NCBI GenBank assembly: GCA_001798135.1
Contig: MGRJ01000031.1
Location: 57,589-121,588 of the forward strand
Source of the DNA: Deltaproteobacteria bacterium RIFCSPHIGHO2_02_FULL_40_28
Lineage (GTDB): Bacteria > UBA10199 > 2-12-FULL-40-28
Direction: 5' to 3'
DNA length: 64,000 nucleotides
A program made the translations under genes and the position numbers. The notes under the pieces were generated by a model. It had not been told where the DNA came from and did not search any database. It saw only the letters and a list, made by a program, of their open reading frames with translations. Shown here piece by piece: positions 16,791 through 44,400 of the stretch; within the stretch, counting starts at the first letter, position 1, and each line of letters starts with the position of its first letter.

Positions 16791-18590
16791 TTAGTAACGG
16801 CCAGAATTCCTGCGATCAGTTAAGGCATAGTTCATCTCATCAGTTGCCAAGAGATCGTCATAGTGTTCGCCACCACGACCACTGATAGGTGATACATCGG
16901 TTCCTTCACCACCATTGTCATATTCTGTAGAGGCCGAACTATCTCCTGCATAAAGAAGAGGGCTACTAGCATCGGGAGTAAAGGCATCGGGTGTTGCTTC
17001 TAATGCACCATCATCGGCAATGCTCAAAGTTACTCCATCGTTTTGCCAAACAGGAGCCTCAGTGAAAAGATTACCCGTTGAAGATTCTGGAACTTGATCA
17101 TCTGTCATTCCAAAGGTGTAGAAGTTAGAAAAATCAATTGTGGCACGATTTTGTGGATCAGAATCCGACAAACCAGAAATGATATCTCCTTCAACCAACA
17201 TGTGGCTGATCTGCCAGTTATGAAGTGAAATCACTCCCTCATCAACACCATTATCTAAAGTAACAGCATTTGTAAAAGGGGTGATACTGTCGGCCGCTGT
17301 GATTTCTTCGCTTATAGGAAGTGAAGCTTCAAAATAATCTGTAATGCTGCGATTTTGAGCCAATTCTACATTGGAAGAATCGAAAGTATTACCTTCAACA
17401 GAAGTAACGCGCACAGGGGCTACACTTCCAGCAAAGTTATCTACAAATTCTGCAGAAACAAGGCTTGAAGTATCCAAGTAATCACTATCTAAATTATTAA
17501 GCAATTCAAGATCAAGAAGACCATACTCAGCATAGCTGGCATTGTTGGCTACCTTAATCCCCCAACCTTCGTAGTAGTGGGCGCTAATATCTAAAAGGCT
17601 GCCTGAGGTTACGTTGCCATCTATGTTAACAGAATGGAGCACCACAGCATTGGCACCATTTGCTGCAACAACACTGGGAGCAAAATCATAGGAATCTACA
17701 AGATTCACATTTTCCAACCAGAGAGTGGAACCTTCACCTGCAAAAGCTGCTTCACCACGAGAAAGTTCGATATAGCTGGGATCCTCTGGGTTTGTGCTTA
17801 CTACTTTAAGGCTGGCACCTGTTCCATGAACAGAAACAGCTCCACGTTCTTCATCATCAGAAAGATCTGCATGCCCTTCTGGTCTGGCAAAATCATGGAT
17901 GGAAACATCTTCTAAAGTGAGATCGTACTCCATGTCTCCAGGAACTAAAACATCCTCTAACACGTCATCATCGGTGCCATCACGACGCACCACAACGGCT
18001 GCATGATGCACATAGCCATCATCACCACTTGTACGACCATCAAAATTTAAACCTTGAACGGAAATTCTTTCGGAATTGTAAACATCTAAAACAACTCCAT
18101 CCTCAGTGCCACTTTCTAAAACAATGGAGGCACTTGAATAGGGAGCTAAAGTCACATCAGCTTTATCATCAACGCTGATATTGACATGATAACTACCAGT
18201 TGTGCCGATGGCATAAGTAGTTTCATCTTCAGTCTCTGTTGCAATGGGATCGGGTAAAAAGTAAACATGATCTCCACTGGTTAAAACGCCATTTAATTCG
18301 GAGGGGGAAACAACAGGACCAGTTAATTCATACAACCCGGCTGCTGCATCGGGATTATTGGTAACAAAAATATCTTGGGGGGTTGCATCATCATCTCCAG
18401 TACCACCAGTACCTGCGGTATCATCAGCAGAATCCTCTGCAAATTCACCACAACCTGAAATTGCTACAATCGCAGCACCCGCAGCAACATAACCAAGCCA
18501 TAGTAAAGGTAAAACCATATATCCTCCCCAACGAAAAAGCTTTTTAAAAAGCTTGTATTTCTTCTTGGTCGTCCAACGGTAGATAACCAA
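16791..18590 (-). CDS. Secreted/anchored hypothetical protein, possibly a beta-helix fold
   Basis: N-terminal TM/signal (LPLLWLGYVAAGAAIVAISGC), Asp/Thr/Gly-rich, 599 aa, lying upstream of the TSP3 protein on the same strand. Confidence 0.35.
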   Translation of the reverse strand: MVIYRWTTKKKYKLFKKLFRWGGYMVLPLLWLGYVAAGAAIVAISGCGEFAEDSADDTAGTGGTGDDDATPQDIFVTNNPDAAAGLYELTGPVVSPSELNGVLTSGDHVYFLPDPIATETEDETTYAIGTTGSYHVNISVDDKADVTLAPYSSASIVLESGTEDGVVLDVYNSERISVQGLNFDGRTSGDDGYVHHAAVVVRRDGTDDDVLEDVLVPGDMEYDLTLEDVSIHDFARPEGHADLSDDEERGAVSVHGTGASLKVVSTNPEDPSYIELSRGEAAFAGEGSTLWLENVNLVDSYDFAPSVVAANGANAVVLHSVNIDGNVTSGSLLDISAHYYEGWGIKVANNASYAEYGLLDLELLNNLDSDYLDTSSLVSAEFVDNFAGSVAPVRVTSVEGNTFDSSNVELAQNRSITDYFEASLPISEEITAADSITPFTNAVTLDNGVDEGVISLHNWQISHMLVEGDIISGLSDSDPQNRATIDFSNFYTFGMTDDQVPESSTGNLFTEAPVWQNDGVTLSIADDGALEATPDAFTPDASSPLLYAGDSSASTEYDNGGEGTDVSPISGRGGEHYDDLLATDEMNYALTDRRNSGRY

Positions 18591-23450: not shown

Positions 23451-23572
23451 TCAATTAAAAACAAATTGACTATACCAAGCAAAATGCCCGCTTTATCCAG
23501 ATTCTTCAAGGATAAAGCGGGATTGCCTTATGTAGCGGGGCCAGGATTTGAACCTGGGACCTTCGGGTTATG

Positions 23573-24233
23573 CATACCATCTACAGCTTTCGCTGCTCTC
23601 GCTTAAAAAGCGAGATTTGTGGTCTGGACTTTCTCTTCACCATACTTTTTTTCAAAAGCTTAGGTGCCTGCCATTAAGTCTCTACACCTTTCCCAACCAA
23701 TCATTGAGTTGGAACTTGGCTCGGGATTACCCTTCCAACGGCTTCCCCGAGTTTGACAGGAGTTCGTACAAAAGTTTCCTTCTGTACAGCCCATTGCGAA
23801 ATTAATTCCCAAGCATCCCGAAAAGAGGAAGAATTTGGTTTTCGTTGACGCTTGTCAGTTTCGACAAAGTGAATTTCACTGCCGTAACTGATAAACACTT
23901 TAACTGGCATTACATAAAAAACATTAAGTTCTTTAATGTAGGCCAGCGCAAAGTCAAAGTCGCACTCATTGTAAACCTCACGAACCATCTGACGACGATT
24001 CGTTTTGGTTCGGCGGTTATCAACAACATAATTGCCTGATCCCTCATGGAACCAAGCCGATTTGACTTGAACCTTTATAAGAGTTCCCTGGATATCAAAA
24101 ACCAGATCATAGGACATTCTATCCCCAACTGGTTTAAGAACACCCCAGCCTCTCTTTAAGGCCTCAAGCACGGCCGCCTGCTCAGCAATATCGCCTTTGA
24201 GCTTTGTGTTCATTCGTTAACTTCGCGGTATCG
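23573..24233 (-). mobile_element. Group I-like intron (about 661 nt) in the anticodon loop of tRNA-fMet, between U33 and C34
   Basis: The 5' exon ends in U. The intron ends in G (…ATGGTATG|CAT). P/Q/S-like elements lie 3' of the ORF (UUGGGAAAGGUG, AAUGGCAGGCACC, GAAGAGAAAGUCCAGACC). The position matches the known cyanobacterial tRNA-fMet intron site. Confidence 0.55.
23701..24213 (-). CDS. Intron-encoded PD-(D/E)XK-type homing endonuclease (I-Ssp6803I-like)
   Basis: 170-aa ORF lying entirely within the intron. Candidate nuclease motif ...YDLVFD...IKVQVKS (D...D-x-n-(E/Q)VK). The only homing endonuclease known from tRNA-fMet introns belongs to the PD-(D/E)XK class. Confidence 0.45.
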   Translation of the reverse strand: MNTKLKGDIAEQAAVLEALKRGWGVLKPVGDRMSYDLVFDIQGTLIKVQVKSAWFHEGSGNYVVDNRRTKTNRRQMVREVYNECDFDFALAYIKELNVFYVMPVKVFISYGSEIHFVETDKRQRKPNSSSFRDAWELISQWAVQKETFVRTPVKLGEAVGRVIPSQVPTQ

Positions 24234-24325
24234 AGCCCGACGAGCTACCTGGCTGCTCTACCCCGCAGTCGTGGGTGGTGTATAAGGTTTTGAACTCGGT
24301 GTGTCAAGAAGGGAGTCGGGGCTTT

Positions 24326-24583
24326 TTACAAGAGCCCTTTGGCAATGTATTGCTTCATCAAGGTTTGATAAGGAATATGGAGTTCGTTGGCTTGTTCTTT
24401 AAGCCTTAAAAGCAAGTAACTAGGCAAACGAATAGAAATAGCATGAGAAGTTGGTTTCAAGTTTGGAAAAGAAACCGAGCTAAAATCGGATGAACTAAAA
24501 TATTCTGTTAAATCAATTTGAGACCAATGCTTGAGTTCTTGTTTTTTACTTTTAAATTGGGGTAATTTAATTTTCTTCTTCAT
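24326..24583 (-). CDS. brnA: BrnA antitoxin
   Basis: ISIRLPSYLLLRLKEQANELHIPYQTLMKQYI. Confidence 0.7.
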   Translation of the reverse strand: MKKKIKLPQFKSKKQELKHWSQIDLTEYFSSSDFSSVSFPNLKPTSHAISIRLPSYLLLRLKEQANELHIPYQTLMKQYIAKGLL

Positions 24584-24863
24584 AAAGACAAACCTCCTTT
24601 TTATTCAAATCACGTGCTGAAATCACACGTATTTTTGGGCCACTGATCGTAAAAACAATGAAAAGCCTTCTTTCCTTTTTTGTTTTACCAAGAAGCAAAC
24701 ATCGCTCTTCTTGGCCAGAATGGATGACATCATTTAAAATCTTTTTTTTGTGATCAAAAAAAACTTCCTCACATTCCTCATTGGTTACCTTATGCTTCAG
24801 GGTATTTTTTTCTTTATTCCCTTGATCCCATTCAAAAATGAGTGGTTCTTTAAGAACAATCAT
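24567..24863 (-). CDS. brnT: BrnT toxin (DUF497 ribonuclease)
   Basis: FEWDQGNKEKNTLKH...IRVISARDLNKKE closely matches the BrnT consensus; it overlaps brnA. Confidence 0.75.
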   Translation of the reverse strand: MIVLKEPLIFEWDQGNKEKNTLKHKVTNEECEEVFFDHKKKILNDVIHSGQEERCLLLGKTKKERRLFIVFTISGPKIRVISARDLNKKEVCLYEEEN

Positions 24864-24913
24864 GTATATACTGTATTATACATATTTTTTAAGAATGGTC
24901 AATATTAATAATT

Positions 24914-25204
24914 CTAGTTTTCTTTTTTAACCAAATAAAAAGTTTCACGATAGATATTCATTCGGGGACCAATAGCAATAATATCAAGAGTTTTATTACC
25001 CGATACCCGGTAGATAATTCTGAATTTTCCAACACGAAAACTCCATAAGCCTTCCAATTCTTCCTTCAACGCCTTACCAATTGTGGGGTTTTCAAGAATC
25101 ATTTCCAATGCAGCTCTTATTTTTCTTTTAATATCAGGATGGAGTTTTTGGATTAAATTCCTTACTGCATGAGGAAGATTGAGTTTGTATTTGTTTAAAA
25201 CCAC
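24914..25204 (-). CDS. RelE/ParE-family type II toxin
   Basis: 96 aa, ...LWSFRVGKFRIIYRV..NKTLDIIAIGPR, typical of RelE/ParE. Confidence 0.65.
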   Translation of the reverse strand: MVLNKYKLNLPHAVRNLIQKLHPDIKRKIRAALEMILENPTIGKALKEELEGLWSFRVGKFRIIYRVSGNKTLDIIAIGPRMNIYRETFYLVKKEN

Positions 25205-25211
25205 TGAGGGA

Positions 25212-25475
25212 TTATTTTAAGAAAATTTCATCAAGAGTATACAGTTTTGATTTTTTCTTTTTAAGAGCTGCCAAACCCGCCTTGATTTCCTTCATCATGG
25301 AGACATCTGAACGAATTTCCAGGGTTTCTTGCCAACTTTCGTATTCATCTGGATTAACAAGAACTGCAGCTGGCCTTCCATTTTTTGTGATAACAACAAC
25401 ATTATCGGTTTTTTTAACTGAATCAACTAAACCACTTAATTTCATTTTGGCTTCCGATAAAGATAATGTTTTCAT
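25212..25475 (-). CDS. Phd/YefM-family antitoxin
   Basis: MKTLSLSEAKMKLSGLVDSV...VVITKNGRPAAVLV, upstream of the RelE-like gene. Confidence 0.65.
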   Translation of the reverse strand: MKTLSLSEAKMKLSGLVDSVKKTDNVVVITKNGRPAAVLVNPDEYESWQETLEIRSDVSMMKEIKAGLAALKKKKSKLYTLDEIFLK

Positions 25476-26300: not shown

Positions 26301-27443
26301 ATGGGTAAAATAATCAGATATCTTTCTAAGCCGGTTACCAGGGATTTACGCAAAAAAATGGTTTTCATTTCAGGGCCCAGGCAAGTGGGTAAAACCACAT
26401 TTGCCCTTTCCTTTCTTAAGGGGACACAAGCCGGGCATCTGGCTTATCTTAGTTGGGATAATGTCCATGATCGGGACAAAATTAAAACAGCTGAACTTCC
26501 TAGCAAACAACCTGTTGTTATTTTTGATGAGGTTCATAAATTTGCCCGCTGGCGTAGCCTTGTTAAGGGACTTTATGATAAATACCATAACTCAACTCGA
26601 TTTATTGTTACTGGCTCGGCCAGACTTGATTACTTTAGTAAAGGGGGTGATTCCCTTTTTGGACGATATTATCATTATCGACTCCACCCCTTTTCCCTTG
26701 CAGAAATTTCAAAAAATCCAACTCTTGATCATGCCTTTCATTTACTCCAGTTTGGAGGCTTCCCTGAGCCCTATCTTTCTGCTTCTGAAATTACTCTCAA
26801 AAGGTGGCAAAAGGAGAGAAAACAAAAAATCATCTATGATGACTTGCGAGATCTTACGTTGGTTAAAGAAACCTCTCTTCTCGATCTTTTGGTTGATGCC
26901 TTGCCTGCAAGAATTGGATCGCCATTATCGATCAAAAATTTAGCTGAAGATCTTCAAGTAAATCATAAAACCATGGAGCGATGGCTATCGATTTTAGAGC
27001 GTCTTTATATCAGTTTTCGTATTGCCCCTTTTGGATCTCCAAAAATCAGGGCTGTTAAAAAAGAACAAAAGCTTTATCTTTGGGACTGGTCAGCTTGTGA
27101 AAATGAAGGAGCACGGTTTGAAAATATGGTTGCCTGCCAGCTTCTAAAATATTGCCATTTTCAAGAAGATGTTTTTGGTGATTCCATGGAACTGCGCTAT
27201 TTACGAGATACCGATAAACGAGAAGTTGATTTTGTTGTTCTAAAAAATAAAAAAGCAGTTTTTGCTGTTGAATGCCGATTAAGCGATACAAACCTTAGCC
27301 CTCATATCCACTATTTTTCTGCCCGAACAGATATTCCAAAATTTTATCAGGTTCATTTGAAAGAAAAAGATTTTGGAAATGAAACTACAATTGGACGCAG
27401 CCTTCCTTTAACTCATTTTGTCAAAGAACTAGGATTACCATAG
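26301..27443 (+). CDS. AAA-family ATPase with DUF4143 (paralog of 1595-2722)
   Basis: Walker A VFISGPRQVGKTT and conserved blocks (GSARLDY, YRLHPFS, QFGGFPEPYL, ERLYISFRIAPFGS) shared with the other copy. Confidence 0.7.
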   Translation: MGKIIRYLSKPVTRDLRKKMVFISGPRQVGKTTFALSFLKGTQAGHLAYLSWDNVHDRDKIKTAELPSKQPVVIFDEVHKFARWRSLVKGLYDKYHNSTRFIVTGSARLDYFSKGGDSLFGRYYHYRLHPFSLAEISKNPTLDHAFHLLQFGGFPEPYLSASEITLKRWQKERKQKIIYDDLRDLTLVKETSLLDLLVDALPARIGSPLSIKNLAEDLQVNHKTMERWLSILERLYISFRIAPFGSPKIRAVKKEQKLYLWDWSACENEGARFENMVACQLLKYCHFQEDVFGDSMELRYLRDTDKREVDFVVLKNKKAVFAVECRLSDTNLSPHIHYFSARTDIPKFYQVHLKEKDFGNETTIGRSLPLTHFVKELGLP

Positions 27444-28576: not shown

Positions 28577-29749
28577 TTATGCCTCGGGTTCTACTGTCCC
28601 TTCTCCTACAATCTCATCATAATTCCACGCTAAATAACCCACGGAACCAATTAAAAAAACAGCCCCTACAATATCACCAAAGGGCAAAACTGGACTATCA
28701 GCCATGGCCATTCCACCTGATACAAGAGCTCTTCCTGCTAACCATCTCAGTGCCACTGCTGTACCAGTTACAGCTACTATTGGTACTGCATTGTCTGCAA
28801 CTACTTCGGACGTTGTTGTTAAAACTTGTCTGGCTGTTTCGACGGCCGTTGTAATTGGCACAACAAGATTAACTGGTTCAAACTTAACTACATTGGGAGC
28901 GGATGGGCCACCACTAGGACCATTACCCACACGATTACCACCAGGCGCAACTGGAGGAGCACCAGGAGGAGGTCTTGGTCCACCACGAAATAAATGTTTT
29001 ATTCTTTCTGAAATGGCTGGATAAATATCAACAAAAACTGCTGCAGCAGCAAAGATTGCAAGAGTTGCTAATGCATACTCTTTTGCTGTATCACTAAACA
29101 CTTTGGATTCAACCACCCCTAAAGCCTCATCAATTTTTTCGATATCTCCCTTGGGAATGGCATTCACTCTTCCTTTTAAATTAACATCATCACTTCCTTC
29201 ATTTCCAAAATCTTTATGAATGCGTTTAATTTCATCAATGATGGCACGAAATTCTTCTACATCTTCGGGTTTGGTAAAATCAAAGGGGGTTTGAAGATCC
29301 ATCACGCCTGTAGGATTTACTGTTACTCCATTTTCGAGAGGGAGACTCCACTGATTATCATAGGCATAACGTTCCCCTGGTTCTACACTCACAGCAGCCC
29401 TTGCTACTCTTTCACTCATGGGCCAAACTTGATTGGGGCGAACAGATGTTGCAGCGGGATCTTGTTCAGAACTTGTTAAATCTGTAAAAATAGAACGACG
29501 AATCACAGCAGGACCGGTTTCACTTAAACGACAAGCCTGATCTGTGGGTTGAATATATCCACCTATTCTTAATTGACCGTCGGAAGGCGCATTAACGTTA
29601 AAAACTTCGGGTAAAAATTCGGGATTAATGTCTGTTCTAGAAGCAAGGCCTCGTTCAGTTAAAAAATAAAGAGTGTCGTCTTTTCCCCAGGTTTTATCGA
29701 GAGATTCGGGTGTGATTCCGATAGTTGCACAAAGTGATAATTCAGCCAT
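28577..29749 (-). CDS. Hypothetical protein with a Pro/Gly-rich linker and two C-terminal transmembrane helices
   Basis: 390 aa. GPRPPPGAPPVAPGGNRVGNGPSGGPS linker. Hydrophobic C-terminal segments. GC-richer than surrounding housekeeping DNA, on the same strand as the 1228-aa gene. Confidence 0.4.
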   Translation of the reverse strand: MAELSLCATIGITPESLDKTWGKDDTLYFLTERGLASRTDINPEFLPEVFNVNAPSDGQLRIGGYIQPTDQACRLSETGPAVIRRSIFTDLTSSEQDPAATSVRPNQVWPMSERVARAAVSVEPGERYAYDNQWSLPLENGVTVNPTGVMDLQTPFDFTKPEDVEEFRAIIDEIKRIHKDFGNEGSDDVNLKGRVNAIPKGDIEKIDEALGVVESKVFSDTAKEYALATLAIFAAAAVFVDIYPAISERIKHLFRGGPRPPPGAPPVAPGGNRVGNGPSGGPSAPNVVKFEPVNLVVPITTAVETARQVLTTTSEVVADNAVPIVAVTGTAVALRWLAGRALVSGGMAMADSPVLPFGDIVGAVFLIGSVGYLAWNYDEIVGEGTVEPEA

Positions 29750-30454: not shown

Positions 30455-33400
30455 TTAAAGACGAGCATGACGTGCTGCATCACGCATGGCTTCAGATCCA
30501 CTGCGGCGACGTCTGGCTTCTTCTTCAACACGGCGGGCATGCTCTGCAGTCACTGTAGCTCTTTCAATTACAGCTACCCGTGAGGCTCTAACCCCTCTTT
30601 CGAAACCATCAACTAAACGCGCATAATCGGCAGGTTGAACAGTAACAGCTTCTTCGGCTTGGGCTTGGCCGCAAATCATATCAAATAAAGCTTGTTCGGA
30701 AGTTAAGTTGTAACTAGACATGCGGGCTTCTACTTCTCTGGCAACACCTTCATCCATTCTTTCGAGGAGCTGTGCAATACTACTTGTGGCTCTTCCTTCA
30801 CTTAAATCATCACGGAAATAATTGGCTAATACTGGATCTACAGTATTTAAGGCTTGATACACTTCAGCAGTACGCACCGTATCAAATATCATGGCCTCCA
30901 TCGGAGTGGGTACAAAAGTTGAGACTGGAGCTGGAGGAGGAACTGCTGTTGCTGCAGGCACACTTGAACGCAAACCACCGCCCAATGTTTTCCCTAAACC
31001 AGAACCTAAAGTAGACCTTCCCCCTAAGGTAGGGGCGGAGCGAACCACGCCCGCTGGGCGTGGGGCCTCTGGGGCAGCCATGCCAGAGGCAGGCGCAGCT
31101 GGTCTACCCGCTGCATCGGCTGCTGGAGGCCTGGGAAGCTCACGTCCCATGCGATCGTAAGTTTGACGAACCACTTCGGCTTGAGTGATTACTTGATCCC
31201 ATCTTCCTTCTTCTACAGGCATGCCTAGGGCATTGGCAGAAGTTGAACCCACGCTTCTCGCTCTTTGAACAAGAGCTTGAAGACTTCCACGAATACGACG
31301 CAAGCGCGCTACACGCTCGGCTCTAGTTTCTCCGGGCTGAAGATCGTAGGCCCTGTAATTTCTGCGTAAATCTTCCTCAATAAATCCTTCATTGTGAAGC
31401 ACAGTATGGTGGGCTTCAATTTCACCAATCAAGTCGTAGGCAATGGCATCACTTTGTAAATTATTTAAAATAGTGCGGGCAATACCGTCAGTTACAACAA
31501 CCGTAATCCTTCCATCTGCAGCCTCTGTATACCAATCACGAGGGAGTTCTTGCATCTCATAGAGATAATGAATGTAAGACACAACAGATTTAGCTACTGT
31601 AGTTACACGATCAATGGGTGAACCAGGTAAGGCACTTGAAGAACGCACAATACCTTCCAATACAGCATTGGAGGGAGAGACAACAGTTAGGTTTCTAATA
31701 GCACTTGTTGGCACCCAGCTAGGAGCACCCAAATTACTCACAGGAGCTGGTGGGTTTCCTAACCAACGTGGACGGGCTCTCCAAATAGTGCGACCTGCAG
31801 TATAAAATGTAGTACCCGTATCTATCGTCCACCTATAAGTTCCCACTGTCCAATCGATGGGATGGCGTAAGGGATATAAAGTTCCACTCCTTACATTCCA
31901 ATCTACTTTTCGTACCCACCATGGCCTTGCATCAGGAAAAACAGGTTGCACTCTGGCAGTTCTAACAGCTGAATCGCTGGTCCCATCAATGGCCCGTCTA
32001 GCTGCATTAATCAATTGCGGCATGCCTAAGCGCCCTAAACGGATGGGCTCTAAACGACGAGAAAGCTGACCCGCATCGGCTTCGTCAGTAGCAATTTTAT
32101 TGTAATCGGCATTGGTCATGGTGCAAGAACCTGTTACACGACCATCACCAATATAGGGTTTTAATTGATCCACCACCTTGCGCTGGGGAGATTTATCTCT
32201 CATGCTACTTACAGAGGCTGCATCTCCAATTTCTTCAAAGTTAACTCGAACAATATTGCTTCTCGTCCGTTCGGCTTCCAGCAAGTCAACCAAACGCATA
32301 GCTCTCTCTTCGGGCTCACCCACGTATTTGGCATCACGAATCAAAGTGGCAATTTGAACGCTGATGTAACTATTGTAAGCCAAAGATTCGGGGCATAAAC
32401 TCCAAATGTATCCTCTGGCTTCTACCTGGGTCTGGGTTAATCTTTGGTTTAGCCCCAAGCTTCCTTGCTCTCGCAAATCGCGCTCTAATTCCATGATACG
32501 ACGCCTAAGCCACATGTGACGTGCAATTTCTTTTACCATGACTGTTTTACCCGAACCACCCTCACCAACAAAAGCAGCAAAGGATTTACCATCGGTACGT
32601 TCCCAAATCATGAAGGTTTGGCGCACTTCATTTTCGCGCCCTTCCAACGGAATCCGTGTTTCTACATCCTTAAAGGGATCTTCACCCCATTGTTTCACAA
32701 AATCATCCAAAGACATTTTTGCCAGTTGAGCCCTTCTGGCCTTTTTAACAGCCTCTTCTTTGGCCGCCTCAAGTCCCGCGCCAATGGCTGTTCTTAAAAT
32801 CATTGTTAACACAATAGCACCCACAACATGTGAAAGGGATAGGGCCCCAATAAGCTGCATTACCTCGCTCGCTCCCATGGATAAACCATGCGCCTGTAAT
32901 TCAGTTGGAGTTAATGAATCCACCCCTTGTTCTTCAGCATATTTTTGAAACTTAAAATAAAGTTCTCGCCTACGGCTAGGATCCATATCGTTTAAAACTT
33001 CATAGGCGGCTGCTAGCATAGGGTCTGCATTAGCGGGCAAAGCTTGTGGTGGATCACTACGAAGCATAAAAATTGCATCTCTAATTCCCTTCAACATGGC
33101 AGGTAAAGTGTTGGGATCAATTTTAAAACGCAGCGTTTTAGCCCCTGTTGTATCCATCTCTTGCACACAACCATCATAGGCCATAGGGTTAATATTGTAG
33201 ATGGCAAAAAGATCATTTACCTCATTAATTTCATGAGGATTAAAAGCAAAATCAAGGGTGTAGTAACCCTTTGCAGAATCAGCTAGGGAGCTACAAGCAT
33301 CTTCAATTTTAGGGATGGCTAAAATAGTGGCATTAAAAGGAACGGCTTCCTCTACAGGCTGTCCATTAGCACCCATGACAGATGTTTTAATATCAATAAA

Positions 33401-34141
33401 TCTTCTCTTAAAATCCTCTAATTGATAAGATCCATAAGCCCCTGTTTGAGAGGTAATAAAAGCTTTTACTGCAGCTTCTTCTGCAGGCGTTCCGGGAATA
33501 TGCTGACCAGCTGGTACTGTATACAAACCTAAATTATCAAGAGTAACCGCCTGAGCCGTTATATTTCCTGTAGCATCATTAATAAGTAAAATTGAAAGTT
33601 TGTAGGTTTCGGCCATTCGAGGAATATTAACACTCGCAAAAATTTGGCCGGCAGCCCCTTCGGCATCAGCCTTGCTAAAATAAAAAGAATCTTGGATAGT
33701 ATCTAAATTTCCATCTCTATCAGCATAATAAACCTGATGGGTTTGAATGGCGTCAGGATTGGAAGGATCTTTTAAAAAACCATTCCTATCAAGCATTCCT
33801 ACCCCACTTAAAAAAGCTCTTTGGCCAGGAGATAAAATCTGGGCAACCGCTTTATTTTGTCTTGATAGCTGCCTGACGGCAGCTAATCGGGTTTGAGGAA
33901 TAAAAACTTGATTTTCGTAATTGGAAGGATTGTTATCGGCATCAATCACAACACCCGGGATTATTTTTTCGTTCTCTAATTGCTCACTCATAAAACGAGT
34001 GGCATGATCGTTTAAAAGATCAACTTTAAATTCTTGGAAAGCAGTAGGAGTGATGGTAAAATCTGTTCCTTCTGTTAAACCATCCAAAAGGCCACAGTTA
34101 CGAAAACGTGCAAGATCGCCATGAATTATGGAAGTTACCAT
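30455..34141 (-). CDS. Large (1228 aa) P-loop NTPase-domain protein of unknown function with Pro/Ala-rich low-complexity regions
   Basis: Walker A FVGEGGSGKTVMV near the middle. About 480 N-terminal residues are unrecognised. A hydrophobic stretch (LIGALSLSHVVGAIVLTMILRTAIGAGL) is present. Local GC is noticeably higher than the flanks. Confidence 0.45.
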   Translation of the reverse strand: MVTSIIHGDLARFRNCGLLDGLTEGTDFTITPTAFQEFKVDLLNDHATRFMSEQLENEKIIPGVVIDADNNPSNYENQVFIPQTRLAAVRQLSRQNKAVAQILSPGQRAFLSGVGMLDRNGFLKDPSNPDAIQTHQVYYADRDGNLDTIQDSFYFSKADAEGAAGQIFASVNIPRMAETYKLSILLINDATGNITAQAVTLDNLGLYTVPAGQHIPGTPAEEAAVKAFITSQTGAYGSYQLEDFKRRFIDIKTSVMGANGQPVEEAVPFNATILAIPKIEDACSSLADSAKGYYTLDFAFNPHEINEVNDLFAIYNINPMAYDGCVQEMDTTGAKTLRFKIDPNTLPAMLKGIRDAIFMLRSDPPQALPANADPMLAAAYEVLNDMDPSRRRELYFKFQKYAEEQGVDSLTPTELQAHGLSMGASEVMQLIGALSLSHVVGAIVLTMILRTAIGAGLEAAKEEAVKKARRAQLAKMSLDDFVKQWGEDPFKDVETRIPLEGRENEVRQTFMIWERTDGKSFAAFVGEGGSGKTVMVKEIARHMWLRRRIMELERDLREQGSLGLNQRLTQTQVEARGYIWSLCPESLAYNSYISVQIATLIRDAKYVGEPEERAMRLVDLLEAERTRSNIVRVNFEEIGDAASVSSMRDKSPQRKVVDQLKPYIGDGRVTGSCTMTNADYNKIATDEADAGQLSRRLEPIRLGRLGMPQLINAARRAIDGTSDSAVRTARVQPVFPDARPWWVRKVDWNVRSGTLYPLRHPIDWTVGTYRWTIDTGTTFYTAGRTIWRARPRWLGNPPAPVSNLGAPSWVPTSAIRNLTVVSPSNAVLEGIVRSSSALPGSPIDRVTTVAKSVVSYIHYLYEMQELPRDWYTEAADGRITVVVTDGIARTILNNLQSDAIAYDLIGEIEAHHTVLHNEGFIEEDLRRNYRAYDLQPGETRAERVARLRRIRGSLQALVQRARSVGSTSANALGMPVEEGRWDQVITQAEVVRQTYDRMGRELPRPPAADAAGRPAAPASGMAAPEAPRPAGVVRSAPTLGGRSTLGSGLGKTLGGGLRSSVPAATAVPPPAPVSTFVPTPMEAMIFDTVRTAEVYQALNTVDPVLANYFRDDLSEGRATSSIAQLLERMDEGVAREVEARMSSYNLTSEQALFDMICGQAQAEEAVTVQPADYARLVDGFERGVRASRVAVIERATVTAEHARRVEEEARRRRSGSEAMRDAARHARL

Positions 34142-35407: not shown

Positions 35408-38400
35408 TTATCCCGCGGCCTTTAAGGCTGCTGCAACCACTGGAGATGCACTTCCTCGTCTCATGGCACCTGCTCGTGTTGCCATTGCTTCCATACGAGC
35501 ACTAGGACCGGCATGTTCTATCACACCTACATCTTCTAGCACTTGATCGACAGCACTTGCAGGGTCTTCGGCATCCAAGGCCATAGCTAATTGCTGCCAA
35601 TGAATATTTTCTAAACCAAGCCCTTCCATTTCATCACGGCCATAACCATGTTCTTCCAAACGAGCAAGAAGGGTTGCGCGATCCATCTCTCCAGTAGGGG
35701 CGTGATTTATCACGCCCTGTTCAGAGGGCGCAATAAATTGCGCCCCTACATGAGAGACACCTTGAACCAAGCCACTACGCAAACCAGCAACATCTGCTAA
35801 GCTAACAAGTTCTCCAGTTGCTCTAGCCGCTACTTCTCCAGGTGCAGATGGAGAACCTGGATCGCCACGTCGCTCTTCGGGCTCCTCGCGATGACCAGGG
35901 CTCGGGCCATCTCCACCATCAGGGCCACTATCTCTTCCGGGCTCTGGAGGAGGTGGAGCTTCGCGTCCATGGATTAAACGTTCAAACGTACTCTCTAATT
36001 CTTCACCCACACGTACTGTCCCCACATTTTGTGAAGCCAAGAAAATACCACCTTGCCTTCGCGTAGCATCATTAGCAGACTGGGCATTGGCAAAGGCATT
36101 AGTGACAGCTGTTCTCATCAAAGGCTTTGCAATGGCCTCTGTTAAAGTTTTATCTTTAATTTTCTCACGATAGAATTTTAATTGAGTGTCTAATTTTAAA
36201 GCTCCTGGAGTATCCATTAAACGAAGTTTGCGGCCTTCGGCATCTTCAATCACACGAACAGCTACGGAACTACCTAAAGATGGATCCCCGCCTTCGCGGG
36301 GATGACTGAGGGTAAGGGGATCACTCAGAATAGTTTTTCCACCATACTGACTTTCTTTTGAATAAAGAATGGCATCATCCAAGGCTACACCGCTAGCGCC
36401 CCAATGAAATGCGCCTTTTACATCTTCGTGGGTGGTATAGGCACCCGAAGCAATGACTGGAATTTTTGCATCATACAAAGCTTCACGAGCTTTTCGAACA
36501 ATCAGTTCGGGATCGGCATTCATGTCGCGATTTTGTTCAACGGCTTGAAGAATTTTATTAAAATTATGCCCCAAAGCTTTTTTAACAAAAGCAAAGGTGG
36601 CTCTAATTTCTGGATCCTCGGGATGGGCACGCAAGTTTTCGATAGCTCGCGCCAATACGTTTTGAGCTGCCTTCATTTGAGGAACATAACGAGCCGTTAA
36701 AACACCAATGGCCTGTCCGTCTTCACCAAAGAAGGTAACTTTCATGCGCATATCACTCGTTAAGCCATCCCACTCTGGAACCTCAGCCACTAAGGTAATT
36801 GCTTCATTGGCTTCCGGTGCACGCAAAGGAGTGTACAAATTATCTGCAGTGAATCCCCAAATTTTAAAAGCCATCATGCCTGTCCAGCCTGTTAATTCAT
36901 CAGCAGCCAGCATCATGGAATGATAACGGCTTTGACCTTCAATGGGTGTTACCCTTCCCCAAAGAGCTTTTTTTCCATCATCATAATTAAATCTAAAATG
37001 TAAGCCCGTGCCATGCTCATGCCCGGCTGCTACACAATTAGGTAAACATCCAAATTGAGCATTACTTGCAAGTTCGGCTGGATTAATTGTGCTGGCTTTA
37101 TCTTTGCTTTTAACTTTGGAAGCATCTTGGAAAGTAGCATTGGAAAGAGTTTTTTCTTCACGAGTGGCAGGCTTACCTCCTTCGGCTGGCTTATCAACAA
37201 GCTCCATCATTCTCATTTCAATGCGACCATCTGGTTTTTTCTCTACATAAATTCGAACATTGGCATTGGAAGGCGCATTCGCAATATAGCCCACGTTTCG
37301 ATGCAATTTATTAATATCAACTCTTTCGCCACCCTTCACCATGGCTTCTAAAACAGATTCAAAAATGGAATCAAGCATGCCTCCATGGGTGATACCCGTG
37401 TATCCCGCATAAGTTTCTGGAAGTTTAAAATCGACTTCGGATTTATTGGAGTAAAGTCTAAAAGAAGGAAAATCCGTTGTTTTGAATTGTAAATTAATGG
37501 GGCGAAGGGGCACAGTAGGCATCACATCCCACCTAGGATCTCTTAAGTCAGATAAATCACCAAATTTATTTTCTCCGGCCTGGTTTATATTTCCAGAAGA
37601 AATACTTCTCTCAACCACCACAGCATCAAACTTAGCCTTGGTAGTTTTTTGATTAGGTTTACCTTCGTGTTCAACCACCTTCATTTCAGTGAGTTTAATA
37701 ACCTCGGCTGCTGTATCCACCGTTTGAAAAACAGCAATGCCTACTTTATTTAAAGCAATGACTTGTTCTGTCTTAGGCAATCCCCCTCTAAACATCACGC
37801 CGCGCACTTGCTTTTCTGCAACCACTTTAAGTTGGGCTTCAAAGTTAGAGGCAGAAACATCTAAACTCACCACAAGAGGCGCTGTATTACCTACAGCGGC
37901 ATACACAGCATCAATTCTGGCCTCTAGGGTATCAGGGACCCCATTAACACCATTACCACCTTCAGTTGCTGCTTTTCTTGCAGCTCTTTCTCGTAAAACT
38001 TTTTCTGCTGCTGTTTCAGTGGCTTTTAAATTTCCTGCATCCAGGGTTCCAATGCCACCGGCATCAATAACAGCAATGGCCAAACTAGGTGTATTGACCT
38101 CTGGTGAAAAGCCACGTTGAAGCACAGGATAAGAAACACCCTTAAAGGCCTCGGGCATGGGCAACTGGGCTATCCCCTCTGCGTCATGTTTAATGCCTCT
38201 CTCTAAGGTTCTTTTTTCTTTGATGTCACCAATATGCTCAAAAGTATATTTGAGATAATCACCAGGTAAAATATCCGTCAGTAAAAGGGCCGTGTCTTCA
38301 CGAGACATTTTGCCTTCAAACTCCCTGATATCTTTACCGTTGGCCACCCAGGCTGCTTTTTCAGCTCCTAGTCTTGCTTCTAAACGAGCTTGAACTTCTT

Positions 38401-41400
38401 GAATTCTTCTGGCCACCTCGGGATAAACAGACACTTCGTGCTTATCTACAAAAACATAAATATTTTGATCATAGAGACCCCTTTCAAACTCACCTTTTAG
38501 AGCTCCCAAGAGAGCACGCACAGAAAGTTCATTCATAGATACAAATTTTGTTACCGCAGGATCAACTCCTGGTAAGACAAGAGCTCCACTTTGAATATCT
38601 TCAAAAATGCGTTTTTCAATCAAGCCCGCCAAGGTTCCACCAGGAATTGCATGTAATGCAAAAGATAAAAAAGCAGGAAAACTTAAAACACGACGTAAAC
38701 CTGTTTTAGGATCAGAAAGCCTGGGGCTTGCCAATTCTTTTTTGGTGGTCATCTTGGCGCGACCCAGAGAACCCTTGGTTTCCCAGGTAGCCCCGCCGTA
38801 CACTCCACCCAACATTCCATCCGATTCAGAACCACGCCAATCAAACCAAAAAGTTTCTGAAGCTCCAAAATGTTTGCCCCTGGCTCCTTTTAACCAACCT
38901 TGTTCATTGAATAAATCAAGCAAACGGGGATGGCTTCTGCCCATGGGAATAATGGTTGCTATTTCTTCTTCTTTTTCAGAGGCAAAATTAGGAATTTTTT
39001 TCATTTCTAATTCGCCATAGGAATTCATGCTAGGAACAGAAAGTTCGGGCTGGTAATGCGCCCTAGCAGGCAAGCCAAAGGCTACAGAGTCAAAGAAGTT
39101 TACCCCCGGGAGTAGATTTTGTTTAATCAAAGCATCAACAGTTAAACCTTTAATGTTATCCCATTGAAGCTCGGTGTCAAATTCTGTATTAACAGCGGCA
39201 AGCCAGCCCCTAGGGTCTGTAAATCCCAGTTCTTCTAACTTGGTTGTACCTTTCACCAGCACAGGGCGATTTAAAATACGAGAAGCTTTTCTAGTTAACC
39301 ATCCACGAATTTCAGCAACGGTAGGCTCAAAAGCTTTTCCAACAGCTTCAACCACTTCTTTGGGAAGAGGAGTTGGAGTACCGGTTGCTGCCGGGTGGCC
39401 CACATCAAAGGGTACGGCATTTACATTAAGCAATTGTAAGTTAACTCCATGAGTCTCCGCCAAGGCCTTCAAAACAGCAGGATTAAAGGCAGAAGCTTTT
39501 TCAACAAGTTCTTCGGGTTTAGCGGGATCAACGGGATTTGGATCACGATGCACACCCACTACTTCTTTAACCGCTCCTGATTTAATCAGCGCGATTAAGG
39601 TGCGCATACCCATGCCATCAGACATGCCGTAAAACACCATGGGACGACGATGCCAGTTTTTTTGACGAGCCAGGTGGCCCATTTCGTTTACTTCTCTTTG
39701 TCCAATGGAGTCATAAATTTCTTTTACACGGGCTTGGGCCTCGGCATATTTAATGGCATTGTGCTGAGAGCGAATAATTTCTGCATTGGCGCGTTTGTTA
39801 GTGGCGCTAGCTTGATCTGCTGTAACTTCCAAGCGTTTTACCTTCTTGTTTTCGAAATCAACCGTATACACTCTGGGGTTTACAAAATTATTCTGGGCTA
39901 AATCGGTATCCACTTCCAGCTCTACACCCTCATTTAAGGGGAATTGGTAAACCCAACTTTCGATATTGTTCCAATCCAGTTTTCTGCCTTCCAAAACAAG
40001 TGCACGAGCAATGGCATGGGAACGCAAGGTTACTTCATATTGATCACGATAGAGAGAAACGGGGGTTTCTTGATAAGTAGCCCGATTAAAAAACATTTTA
40101 CGCAAGCCCTGACGTTCGGCTCTTTTTTGAACTCTTTCTTTCGCTACTCCCTCAATGAGTTTAGCCACATAATCCACTGCAGATTCTTCGGTCTCAAAAC
40201 CCAGTTTTCCCATCACTTCAATGATGGCTGTATTTTTAGCATTAAAACCAGCAGCCTCACGAAGCACCACCCATGTTACATCGTCATCGTAGAGATCCCT
40301 TAAATTCTCGGCATGCTTATGGTGGTAAACAGTCACATTTTCTCCACCCTGTGCATGAATATTATCCAAACCAGGATCACCCGGAATACCCAAGAAACGC
40401 ATCACAAGTGGAGATAAAGCTGAATCGGAACCGGAAGAACCACCCAAGAGATGTCCCATATGGGCCTTGGTTTTAACAATGTGGGCAAACTGGGTGGGAT
40501 CTAAAATGGAAGAAAGGAAAAGACGTATGGATTCTTCCTCGTATAAATCTCCCATGGGCGTAGAAGTCTTGTGCGCCATTACAACCAGGCGTACATTTTC
40601 TTTAAGCTTACGGGTATTATCCACAAGAAAATCCACCAAATTTTTTCCCGTACGACCTTCTCCAACAGCTTTATTCCATTCTTCTTCAGTCAGTTTGGGG
40701 CCAAAACGTTCGACTAACTTATTGTAGAGAGCTTTTTGTTCGGTAAGTTTTAAACCCCACGTACTGATGGCTGTATCGGCATTAAATTCTGCTTTTGCAC
40801 GCCCTGCAGCACGCTTCCCCCTTTGAACTGCAACCATTAATTCTTGTACAATACCCGTCATTTCCTCTGGGGTATGCAACACTTCAGTTAATTTTTCTTT
40901 GGCTTGATCCCAGGCATCAAAAAGAGCCGAGCGTTGACCAATACCGTAACCTTCTCTGGCTCCCTTGTAGGCTTGTTTATCTCCATCGGTGCGGCTTTCT
41001 GCCCCTGCAATCATGGAGTAAACAGGATCTCCTGTTTTGATGGCATTAGAAAGTGGGGTAATCCCCTGACCACCACCACCCGCACCCAACACAAAACCAA
41101 AGCGTTCCATATCATCGGGACGGGAAGCCATTTTAATGGCAATATCGCGACCACGACGAACAGAATCTCTTATTGTGGCTCCAATGGCATCAAAACCAAA
41201 AATGGCGTTGAAGGTAATGGCGTAATCAACTCCACCGGCAATCCAAATTTTTGCAAAAACTTCATCCCAGTTAACATCCATTCCACTTTCTTCTCTGCGT
41301 GTTGCAGCCCAATACTCACTAAACAAATGTTTCACAGCCATCACAATGTTCATGTTTCCTGTAGAACAAGCAGCTACAACGGCTAGCGCCATCCCTTCAG

Positions 41401-44400
41401 CACCTAATTGTTCGGTAGCTACCTGACCTGTTGTTGAATCGGGAAGAAGAGCTGCCATTAAGTAGTTGGCCACGCTATCTTCTATTTGCATGGGTTTTAA
41501 GGTCATTTCATTGAAAGGCTCTAAGTCACCCAAGCCTGTACCAATGCCGACAAAAACATTTTTAGGACCAAAAACTTCATCCAACTCTTTAGGAGAGCGC
41601 CCTGCAGCCGACATCAAAATTTGGGATGTAAACATCTTGGCCATAAAGGAAGCTTTGGCCCCAGTACGAAGCTCGCTAGCGGGCACACCCATGCCTTCCC
41701 AGTCAAAACTGGTTTGACCCGGAAGATCGCCCGCAATGGTTTTAGGCAATTGAATTGTAAATTTCATGAAGTAGGTTTGGCCACCCTTGGCTAAAGCATA
41801 CAGAGAGCCATCAGGACGCCTATGAATAGCCAAACCAGCATTTTCTAGTTTTGTACGAGTAGCTGCAGGTAAATTAATTCCCTTAGCAGTATTTTCAATT
41901 TCGATTTCCTTGTCATTATCTCCAAAAGCAACTTGGCGAAGCACTTCAAATTCTTTGAAGCGACCAACTTCCTGAATACCACTATTGGCCAAAAGATGCG
42001 CTTCAACAGCATTTTGCCATGTTTTAAATTTTTCCAAAACAGCATCATCTAAACCAATGGAAGCGGCTAGTTTTTTATAATCTCCCCACTGGGAAACATC
42101 CACACCCATGGCCTTGGCCAAATTGTAAAAATCATAATTACCAAGCCAGCTATAACCCTCGTGCCCTTTAAATAAACCAGCCGCCAACATATTACGATAG
42201 TTGGCTAGGGCATCTGTTCCCAAGGGACCAACCATGCCATACCCACGCACCACAGGAGTTTCATCTTCAAAAAGGATATCGGTTTTAGGCTTGTAAGCAT
42301 AGCGACTGCTTGTTTCTCCCTTAATGGCAATGTTGATGTTATTGAGATCAACAATGGTTCCATCTAAGGGAATAAGGCTGGGATCTACTGCTGCTTTCTT
42401 TTCTTCTGCTTTTCTAGCTTTAGCTTCGGTATGTTTTATATCTTCTGTTTCTTTAACGCGCGCTTCTATCTCACCAAATTTTCCTGTTCTTAAGGCAGAC
42501 GTAAAACCATAGGTATCATCATATTCCCAAAGACCTTGAACCCGCTTGCGGGTATCTCCCTCTGGGGGTCTCAATTTACGTTTCCCAAATTTAGCAGCCA
42601 GCGCCCCCGATAAACCAACTGTTGACAGCTCATCACCTGTAAGGGTTTTAATTTTAATTCCTTCTGCTAGTGATTCAGTTTCTAGAGGTTGCGAATAATA
42701 ATCTTTGCCCGACATTAAAGTTTCTGATCTGCCATCTGATTTTCCCCAACCCGTTGTTCTAGCTACTTCCACTAAAATGGGCTTTTCTTCTTCGTCTCTA
42801 ATCCCATTGGCATAGGCCTCTGCTGCGGTTTGACCTGGAGGCAGAGCATTTTTAGTTAAGTGATAACTTTTGGAACCTGGTAGGGCCGCAGGATTTAATT
42901 CTCCCTCAAGCTCACCCAAGTTTGCTGCATTATTGGGAGTGTAGAGATTAACAAAAACAACTTTCTCCCCTGTTTTGTATTTTTGATGGAGTTTAGCCAG
43001 ACTAATGGCCATCCAACGCGTAGAAAGAGCCATCACCAAAAGAGAATCGAGTGGAGTACCACGATCGGCTAGAGAGCCATAGTCTTCACGTCCAGCTCCA
43101 TTGATGTAGAGAGTAGGGAGATGAGGCATTTGAGGTTCTACTTCTAATTCACCCTTTCTGTATTTTTCTTTATCTTCCTTGTATTGTTTTAAGTCTGCAA
43201 CATACTTCATTTCGATGTAATAAAGCAGGGCATCTTCATCAAAGCGGTTTCCGGGTTGCATATTGGGCACCACATCCATACTGGCTCCATCCGCTGCCTC
43301 GCTGTAAATATCGTAGTAAAGATCGCTGGCTACTCTGCCTTTGCGCTCGGCACTTCGGCCAGCATAATCTGTCATCATCACGTTACCACCCAATTGCATC
43401 CACTTGGAGGCATAGCCGGCTGTGATGGTTGAAGCTTGATGAATTAAGGCCACATGCCCACGCAAATCGTAACCATCCTCAAGTAAAAACTGGAGATCTT
43501 TCCCTGTTTTTTTATCGGCCATGGTGGGATCGGCTAATCTTTTCGCAGCTTCGATAGTGCCATCAGTATCTGGAACAAATTGTGATTTTTTAGCACCTCC
43601 ATAGGTGGGAACATGATTACCCGAAACGATATCGATCACCTTCCCGGTATAAATAATTCCCTCATCCAAACGATGTGCAGCTAATGTGTAGAGATGTTCC
43701 AAGGTATCAATACGTCCTTGGCGACGGGCCTTTTCTGCTGTATCCGCAGTTGCATCCCGTTTTTTGGTTTCGGCATTGATGAAACCACGCAACCAACCCA
43801 AGCGAATACTATCGATTCCATTTGCAATTTGACGCATTTCTCTTTCTTCTTGGTCCAAAAGACTTGCACGTAATGCGTCAGAAGCATCTTCGGGCATACG
43901 GGTTTCAAAAGCAGCGCTTCGCACATAACCCACAAAACGCATGAGGCGGGCTATGCCTCCATTTTGGGTTACATGATTAAAACCATACACACCCATGCCA
44001 GCACGCACGGAAGTTAAAACACCTGTCACATCTTCGGCCGTCATATCCCCGCGTAAAATTTTACGAGGATCAATGGTTTCTGTTCCCCCCTCGGTACCTC
44101 GGTAGTAAATACTATCGGCATAATGGGGTTGCATGAGGCTATCCATAAAGAAGTCGGAGGTGGAAACACGAACAGCCCCTAAACGACGTTCTGCTTCGGC
44201 TAAACGAGAAGCTTGTTCTGAATCATAAGTTGTGGGTGCGCCTTTAGCATCAAGACCCACACGGGTATCTGTGGCTTCTACTCCTCTAGCTGAAGGGGTT
44301 GCTAAAACAGCAACAGCTGCACCTCGAGCCCCTGTTGCACCTGGCGAAGCTGGTGGTGGAGAATCTCCAGCAGCCGCAGGGGCGCTGCTCGCTGCGCCCA

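Follow-up and report, generated by a model that had tools for sequence, protein, structure and literature searches.

Can a bacterial gene for the initiator tRNA that is cut in two by 661 nucleotides (nt) still give a complete tRNA, and what is the sequence that interrupts it? The question arises from a 64,000-nt stretch of contig MGRJ01000031.1 (the window), which belongs to an uncultivated Rifle groundwater metagenome-assembled genome (MAG) labelled Deltaproteobacteria. The original prediction was of a tRNA-fMet gene interrupted in its anticodon loop by a group I-like intron that encodes an endonuclease. Here, direct support comes from the exons, the splice boundaries, a covarying RNA fold, homology of both RNA and protein, conservation of the target, and spread among hosts. 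Together, these suggest an expressed tRNA-fMet gene in which a mobile group I intron, belonging to the classical bacterial tRNA-fMet class, separates tRNA positions 33 and 34, a reading with a probability of about 0.9.

The split tRNA gene and its intron

The locus lies on the minus strand and has three parts, given here in window positions:

24234-24267, minus strand: tRNA-fMet 5' exon, tRNA nt 1-33 (ARAGORN, joined exons and intron mode)
23573-24233, minus strand: group I intron, 661 nt, CGAUACC...GGUAUG (sequence, Rfam, ARAGORN, nhmmer)
23533-23572, minus strand: tRNA-fMet 3' exon, anticodon CAU through A73 (sequence and ARAGORN)

The 5' exon (24267-24234, 34 nt, TGCGGGGTAGAGCAGCCAGGTAGCTCGTCGGGCT) ends in ...GGGCU. 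The 3' exon (23572-23533, 40 nt, CATAACCCGAAGGTCCCAGGTTCAAATCCTGGCCCCGCTA) runs from the anticodon CAU to the discriminator base A73, and CCA is not encoded. When joined, the exons form a 74-nt initiator tRNA-Met(CAU) whose cloverleaf is recognised by ARAGORN as tRNA-Met(cat). In its intron mode, the program recovers this tRNA-Met gene from the raw sequence too, placing a 661-nt intron after nt 34. The two halves had been predicted at exactly these coordinates, and the intron-aware search agrees. Both exons are undamaged, and the joined sequence, as drawn by ARAGORN, carries the marks of an initiator: three consecutive G-C pairs at the base of the anticodon stem (G29-C41, G30-C40, G31-C39), an unpaired position 1-72 with U1 opposite U72, and an A11-U24 pair. 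The insertion site reads GGGCU-intron-CAUAACCC, which places the intron after U33 in the anticodon loop; the spliced junction would read ...GTCGGGCT-CATAACCCGAAGG....

Default-mode ARAGORN reports no tRNA in the whole 64-kb window, so standard annotation overlooks the gene. The sole initiator tRNA gene visible in the window would depend on RNA self-splicing and is missed by default tRNA finders, and annotation would therefore wrongly list tRNA-fMet as absent.

The intron begins with C (24233), directly after the U (24234) that closes the 5' exon, and ends with G (23573). This agrees with the group I-like intron of about 661 nt, starting after U and ending in G, that had been proposed. Rfam places RF00028 (Intron_gpI) at 23808-23609 on the minus strand, over the full model (1-253), with 57.4 bits against a gathering score of 50 (E 6e-12); this is the only Rfam family matched in the window.

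The fold was assessed with relatives from a scan of one genome per GTDB species with an endonuclease alignment, which yielded 281 genomes and from which the best 80 loci were kept. The aligned 3' parts of 66 distinct introns were folded with RNAalifold, and the P7 pseudoknot was then added. RNAalifold recovers P2, P3, P4, P5, P6, P8, P9.0, P9 and P9a. With the P3/P7 pseudoknot included, 97.0% of cells in P2-P9 pair, versus 31-42% after the 3' partners have been shifted by 1-3 columns. Compensatory double changes occur in 42 of the 59 pairs, and none of 500 column shuffles equals the observed pairing and covariation values. The P3-P9 core, pseudoknot included, is therefore present and covaries. 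In the window, it comprises:

23766-23787, minus strand: P2 hairpin, 9 bp, GAAA loop; compensatory changes in 9 of 9 pairs
23754-23760, minus strand: P3 5' strand CCUGUCA, with partner UGGCAGG at 23673-23667; compensatory changes in 6 of 7 pairs
23686-23750, minus strand: P4-P5-P6/P6a domain (RNAalifold and covariation)
23676-23682, minus strand: P7 5' strand GAGACUU with a bulged A, with partner AAGUCC at 23631-23626; forms the pseudoknot with P3; five pairs invariant, the sixth covaries
23638-23666, minus strand: P8 hairpin, A/U-rich, GAAA loop (RNAalifold and covariation)
23577-23622, minus strand: P9.0 (23622-23619 with 23581-23577), enclosing P9 (23615-23597) and P9a (23595-23584, GAAA loop) (covariation)

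In group I introns, P7 is the guanosine-binding helix. Here, its sixth pair is UA in 54 introns, GC in 9, CG in 2 and AU in 1. Compensatory changes are found in three of four P9.0 pairs and in all four pairs of both P9 and P9a. All 66 aligned introns end in G, and in the window the covarying P9.0 would position this terminal G (23573). A pairing between AUACC at the 5' end of the intron and GGUAU at its 3' end was rejected as a conserved feature: relatives lack it, and P9.0 uses the same 3' bases with covariation.

Splice-site pairings and the endonuclease gene

The elements by which the intron can pair with its exons, together with the open reading frame (ORF) that lies among them, are:

24232-24236, minus strand: P1 5' strand, exon G31-C32-U33 plus intron C1-G2; complementary to UGGGC at 23793-23789
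23789-23794, minus strand: internal guide sequence AUGGGC, just 5' of P2; its UGGGC pairs with GCU/CG across the splice site to form P1
24217-24226, minus strand: P1a 5' strand GCGAAGUUAA, intron nt 8-17; 10 bp with 23805-23796
23796-23805, minus strand: P1a 3' strand UUAAUUUCGC, inside the ORF; pairs with the P1a 5' strand
23701-24213, minus strand: homing endonuclease ORF, 170 aa, PD-(D/E)XK, I-Ssp6803I homologue, in the P1 loop (Pfam, PDB 2OST, alignment)

Exon GCU and intron CG pair with UGGGC, and U33 forms a U·G wobble at the 5' splice site. The same P1 pairing is found in 65 of 73 distinct relatives, and the GGGC of the guide is invariant in the 66 sequences. The guide AUG can also pair with the first three bases of the 3' exon, CAU, as P10; this P10 is weak, because the AUG part of the guide varies among relatives. 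RNAalifold additionally offered a pairing of guide UGGG with 3'-exon CCCG/A. It was dropped, as it competes with P1 and its GGG/CCC columns are all invariant and hence uninformative.

Between the two P1 strands lies a further stem, here named P1a. It is a gapless stem of 6-15 bp in the 73 distinct relatives, with 65 different 5' strands, and in most of them its distances to the splice site and to the guide are unchanged. A purine-rich GAAG lies inside the P1a 5' strand, 8-11 nt ahead of the ATG, and intron folding through P1a may therefore limit translation of the endonuclease.

The ORF sits in the P1 loop because it lies between the paired strands of P1/P1a. Its product matches Pfam PF11645 (PDDEXK_5) with 172.3 bits against a gathering score of 26.1 (E 7e-51), residues 1-137 aligning to profile positions 1-137 of 138, which bears out the 170-aa PD-(D/E)XK frame that had been proposed. 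The comparison with I-Ssp6803I likewise holds: residues 2-147 align to 3-149 of PDB 2OST (E 3.1e-67, 229 bits). The ORF is full length and departs at none of the 62 columns that a 20-sequence alignment (window included) shows to be invariant. These include E11, D36, Q49 and K51, putative active-site residues of the I-Ssp6803I family, as reportedly described by Zhao et al. 2007. No NCBIfam model matches the ORF; some of its homologues are named 'group I intron-associated PD-(D/E)XK endonuclease' by NCBI.

The ribozyme core overlaps the 3' end of the ORF: starting at about codon 135, the last ~36 codons also spell P1a, the guide sequence, P2, P3, P4, P5 and P6, and the stop codon falls in the P6a loop. 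The Rfam match starts 108 nt ahead of that stop codon. The original prediction had placed core sequences 3' of the ORF. A core is present, but it is not entirely 3', as the guide and P2-P6 lie inside the reading frame. The conserved protein tail '...PVKFGEA.G.V.PSQ' is most simply explained as the imprint of conserved RNA, rather than as a protein feature. This tail is missing from the Synechocystis enzyme that was crystallised, which has 150-151 aa (PMC1995217; 2OST).

Two flanking elements are predicted to bound the transcript:

24302-24307, minus strand: promoter-like -35 element TTGACA, then 17 nt, then TATACA (24284-24279), about 11 nt before tRNA position 1 (predicted from a reading of the letters)
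23477-23521, minus strand: terminator-like 12-bp hairpin CCCGCUUUAUCC / GGAUAAAGCGGG with an 11-nt loop, followed by U-rich CAUUUUGCUU (predicted with RNAfold)

RNAfold gives -25.6 kcal/mol for 23535-23470.

If the intron behaves as its structure suggests, the pathway likely involves the following steps. A precursor would be transcribed from its own promoter; the guide AUGGGC would pair with exon GCU and intron CG as P1, with the U·G wobble at the splice site; and, once the P3-P9 core has folded, an external guanosine would attack after U33. Next, the terminal G (23573) would enter the P7 site, aided by P9.0, and exon ligation would be aided by P10 (CAU/AUG). The product would be a 74-nt tRNA to which CCA is added afterwards. 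Separately, the ORF product, an I-Ssp6803I homologue, would cut intron-less tRNA-fMet genes in the anticodon stem-loop region, and repair would copy the intron in.

Several observations weigh against this reading. The general Rfam model is only narrowly over its threshold (57.4 versus 50). Both non-canonical consensus pairs of the window intron fall in P8, where it has an A/U-rich hairpin of its own, and its P5 loop and P8 depart from the family consensus. A consensus promoter scan of the window does not list the TTGACA-N17-TATACA element, because the second hexamer does not have T at position 6, and the hairpin after the tRNA is likewise missing from the output of a strict terminator pattern scan, which accepts only loops of 3-8 nt. 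Finally, splicing and DNA cleavage enter the reading as predicted activities, and the promoter, the terminator and translation control through P1a are likewise putative.

The near-threshold Rfam score could also signal an intron unable to splice, leaving a dead tRNA pseudogene while an uninterrupted tRNA-fMet elsewhere supplies the cell. Evidence on a second copy comes from the 64-kb window, which bounds the search for initiator tRNA genes in the host genome, and from the metagenome matches listed. A metagenome scan with a 46-nt junction pattern gave at least 120 matches; among the matches listed, none has the host 5' half GGGGTAGAGCAGCCAGG or flanks shared with the window, which is not evidence of absence. 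Nevertheless, the window intron makes 57 of the 59 consensus pairs, with no invariant core position lost and with both the U·G wobble and the terminal G in place. Its exons retain their initiator features undamaged, and the locus is identical across many independent assemblies. Together, these observations make a pseudogene very unlikely.

A second possibility is that the intron splices and has lost its mobility, with the endonuclease inactive or kept for another role (e.g. intron folding) and the intron inherited vertically. All contigs of this population that reach the site carry the endonuclease gene and intron; no empty allele was found at the locus among them, as read on contigs with the neighbouring BrnA-type antitoxin gene. 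Homing therefore has nothing to act on there. The intron is not a recent arrival, since the nearest sampled relative of the window protein shares only 76-78% identity with it. The ORF tail also overlaps the ribozyme core. However, homing endonuclease genes that are no longer under selection usually decay, and this ORF is intact, full length and complete in all family-invariant columns, the four putative active-site residues among them. Short ORF-less introns of 242-244 nt exist as well and show how loss looks. Immobility thus appears unlikely, though less so than a failure to splice, and a mobile intron remains the preferred reading.

Kinship and spread across bacteria

The resemblance to cyanobacterial tRNA-fMet introns, which had been noticed at the outset, was examined at the level of both RNA and protein. 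An nhmmer profile of 11 cyanobacterial tRNA-fMet introns, built with the window excluded and the 3' exon trimmed, finds 23793-23575 as its sole hit in 64 kb (E 2.9e-40, 132 bits). The set consists of intron-borne endonuclease copies (Snowella, Leptolyngbyaceae) and ORF-less Nostocales introns, and does not include the Synechocystis intron sequence itself. A profile of 65 other relatives, with the window left out, gives E 7.8e-51. Judged by its sequence, the window element is a new non-cyanobacterial member of a well-characterised class of mobile intron.

The type example is the tRNA-fMet intron of Synechocystis sp. PCC 6803 with its endonuclease I-Ssp6803I, reportedly described by Bonocora and Shub in 2001 (GenBank U10482) and followed by the structure 2OST, which is said to be due to Zhao et al. 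in 2007. It shares with the window the same gene and the same 33/34 site after U33. Its length is 655 nt with a 150-aa ORF (PMC1995217, Table 1), versus 661 nt and 170 aa here. The extra length of the window ORF comes from its continuation into the P2-P6 part of the ribozyme. The two endonucleases belong to one family, with a match of E 3e-67 over residues 2-147. In contrast, the Synechocystis host is a cyanobacterium, whereas the window host is a groundwater MAG labelled Deltaproteobacteria.

Williams 2020 (10.1101/2020.01.27.920355) counts the fMet 33/34 intron among four classical tRNA introns of bacteria and places all four in subgroup IC3; this label for the fMet 33/34 class (fMet.2Ug) is taken from that paper, which itself cites the group I intron database. 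The other IC3 tRNA introns, in tRNA-Leu (UAA) of cyanobacteria and plastids, tRNA-Ile2 of Azoarcus and tRNA-Arg of Agrobacterium, likewise are compact, interrupt the anticodon loop and have P1-P2-P3-P9, P9.0 and GNRA-capped hairpins. They are ~200-250 nt long and mostly ORF-less, whereas the window intron carries an endonuclease gene in its P1 loop.

A different arrangement occurs in Nostocales, where free-standing PD-(D/E)XK genes lie beside tRNA-fMet (loci L053, L065, L084 and others). As in the window, the enzyme is of the same family (70-73% identity), the target gene is the same and the intron core is homologous. There, however, the intron is 242-244 nt long and ORF-less, and the endonuclease gene lies ~50-90 nt past the tRNA terminator instead of inside the intron. 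About 20 other Nostocales loci, in addition to L053 (1099-1983), L065, L084 and L087, show this ORF-less intron with a free-standing endonuclease after the terminator hairpin. In L087, the endonuclease is ~790 nt downstream of the tRNA, with sequence inserted between them. The free-standing enzymes end in a degenerate 'PV(K/Q)(F/L)(G/Q)EA' tail, for which ribozyme P3-P4 supplies the coding sequence when the gene is intron-borne. Retention of this degenerate tail suggests that the free-standing genes descend from intron-borne ones.

Such introns had been thought rare outside cyanobacteria and plastids. Current data do not support this view: 281 GTDB species-representative genomes encode the endonuclease, and the best 80 loci from these 281 genomes are mostly non-cyanobacterial, with the same interrupted tRNA. 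In 78 of the 80, the initiator tRNA is split at the same place (GGGCU, intron ending in G, CAUAACC), and most of these are called directly by ARAGORN in intron mode. The groups represented among the best 80 are Nitrospirota, Methylomirabilota, Patescibacteria, Chloroflexota (Ktedonobacterales, Caldilineaceae, Anaerolineae), Armatimonadota, Chlamydiae, Elusimicrobia, Acidobacteriota, Eremiobacterota, Vulcanimicrobiota, Omnitrophota, Bacteroidota, Actinomycetota, several proteobacterial bins, and cyanobacteria. Some of the host contigs are very long (14 Mb in Caldilineaceae; 0.88-1.1 Mb in Nitrospirota and Eremiobacterota).

Identity of the window enzyme to those of the best 80 loci is 61-76%, one partly recovered sequence aside, and shows no host-related gradient: it is 69-73% with cyanobacteria and 71% with another 'Deltaproteobacteria' MAG. 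The target, meanwhile, hardly varies. Across 77 loci with the same insertion site, the flanks of that site at -13 to -7, -5 to +8 and +11 to +15 are at least 98% identical, and the 30 bp around the site are almost invariant. As the bacterial initiator tRNA is a near-invariant target, the element could home into very distant hosts, and one endonuclease could serve many.

The older literature described I-Ssp6803I and its close homologues as 'generally encoded in cyanobacteria' (PMC3384342, 2012), in keeping with the picture of rarity. A patchy distribution of PF11645 that suggested transfer was also reported in 2012 (PMC3424549). In a 2026 survey of 4,934 complete genomes, PF11645-bearing fMet introns were found in two cyanobacteria only, and horizontal transfer of tRNA introns was judged infrequent (PMC13011429). 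The window locus is one data point in a pattern that is absent from published surveys, which place endonuclease-bearing fMet introns in cyanobacteria. Taken with the 281 genomes, it suggests, with rather less confidence than attaches to the intron itself, that the endonuclease-bearing tRNA-fMet intron is no cyanobacterial speciality and probably ranks among the most widespread bacterial mobile introns, homing having carried it repeatedly across phylum boundaries, with the window as one non-cyanobacterial host.

Some caution applies to this spread. Taxon labels of MAGs on short contigs can be wrong; for instance, the 'Patescibacteria' locus L013 and the Methylomirabilota locus L014 are identical over the first 28 intron nt. 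In addition, an IMG/VR scan returned no phage-borne relatives of the endonuclease that might act as a vector. The element occurs with an intact endonuclease in uncultivated lineages of Nitrospirota, Methylomirabilota, Chloroflexota, Acidobacteriota, Elusimicrobia, Chlamydiae and Patescibacteria, and would be a convenient natural system for studying how homing elements spread across phyla via a universally conserved target. The known mechanism is unchanged by these findings; the locus itself is of moderate-to-low interest, and the cross-phylum pattern of somewhat higher interest.

Two side observations concern the other loci. In L045 (Nitrospirae NC_groundwater_954), the intron is 602 nt long, the guide lies ~150 nt from the 3' end, versus ~220 usually, and the Rfam score is below the gathering threshold; this may be a decaying copy. 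Further, a second, uninterrupted tRNA(CAU) lies 30-120 nt downstream of the split gene in L019, L022, L025, L029, L034, L036, L057, L086, L030 and L091, and ~50 nt upstream on the opposite strand in L088; these loci are from Chloroflexota, Chlamydiae and other groups. The idea that these neighbours are spare initiators was rejected. Their 1-72 ends are paired and they do not have the GGG/CCC anticodon stem, which makes them elongator-type and therefore not targets of the endonuclease.

Genomic surroundings of the locus

The tRNA gene is flanked by two toxin-antitoxin pairs (Phd/ParE and BrnT/CopG-type) on one side and by an aminotransferase-serA-purA cluster on the other. Immediately 5' of it are:

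24326-25475, minus strand, and 26301-27443, plus strand: BrnT with a CopG-type antitoxin, ParE with Phd, and an AAA_14/DUF4143 ATPase gene

Gene content of this kind is typical of mobile or island DNA beside tRNA genes.

These neighbours bear on a last alternative, in which the two exons are unrelated tRNA-half relics of integrating elements, or the contig is an assembly or binning chimera with cyanobacterial DNA. tRNA genes often serve as integration sites, bins of MAGs may be contaminated, and two toxin-antitoxin pairs with an ATPase gene just upstream fit such a history. However, a complete group I intron fills the space between the halves, its U and terminal-G boundaries falling exactly at their ends, and the halves join with neither overlap nor gap. 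As far as sequence analysis goes, this excludes two independent relics left by integration, the scenario that the original prediction had named as its own undoing. The same structure recurs in other genomes, in 78 of the best 80 loci. The arrangement sits on a 128-kb contig beside housekeeping genes (serA, purA, aminotransferase) and is reproduced on independent contigs from four data sources (NCBI, JGI, ENA and Logan); the exact window proteins map to MGSL01000028.1 (127.9 kb; GCA_001799145.1, 'Deltaproteobacteria bacterium RIFCSPLOWO2_12_FULL_40_28'). A relic or chimera is scarcely credible, and a genuine intron in this host is by far the better account.

Elsewhere in the window, several large minus-strand ORFs stand out. 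Three give no Pfam match: those of 1228 aa (30455-34141) and 599 aa (16791-18590) at E <= 1e-3, and that of 390 aa (28577-29749) at E <= 1e-5. Two others can be assigned:

51428-59803, minus strand: 2791-aa single-chain eukaryote-style acetyl-CoA carboxylase, with biotin carboxylase, BCCP, ACC_central PF08326 (E 7e-97) and carboxyltransferase
35408-51139, minus strand: 5243-aa ORF, type I fatty-acid-synthase-like, with FAS1 dehydratase region, MaoC, acyltransferase, ACP, ketosynthase and NMO-like reductase

The acetyl-CoA carboxylase ORF lies directly upstream of the fatty-acid-synthase-like ORF on the same strand, an unusual pair for an uncultivated 'deltaproteobacterium'.

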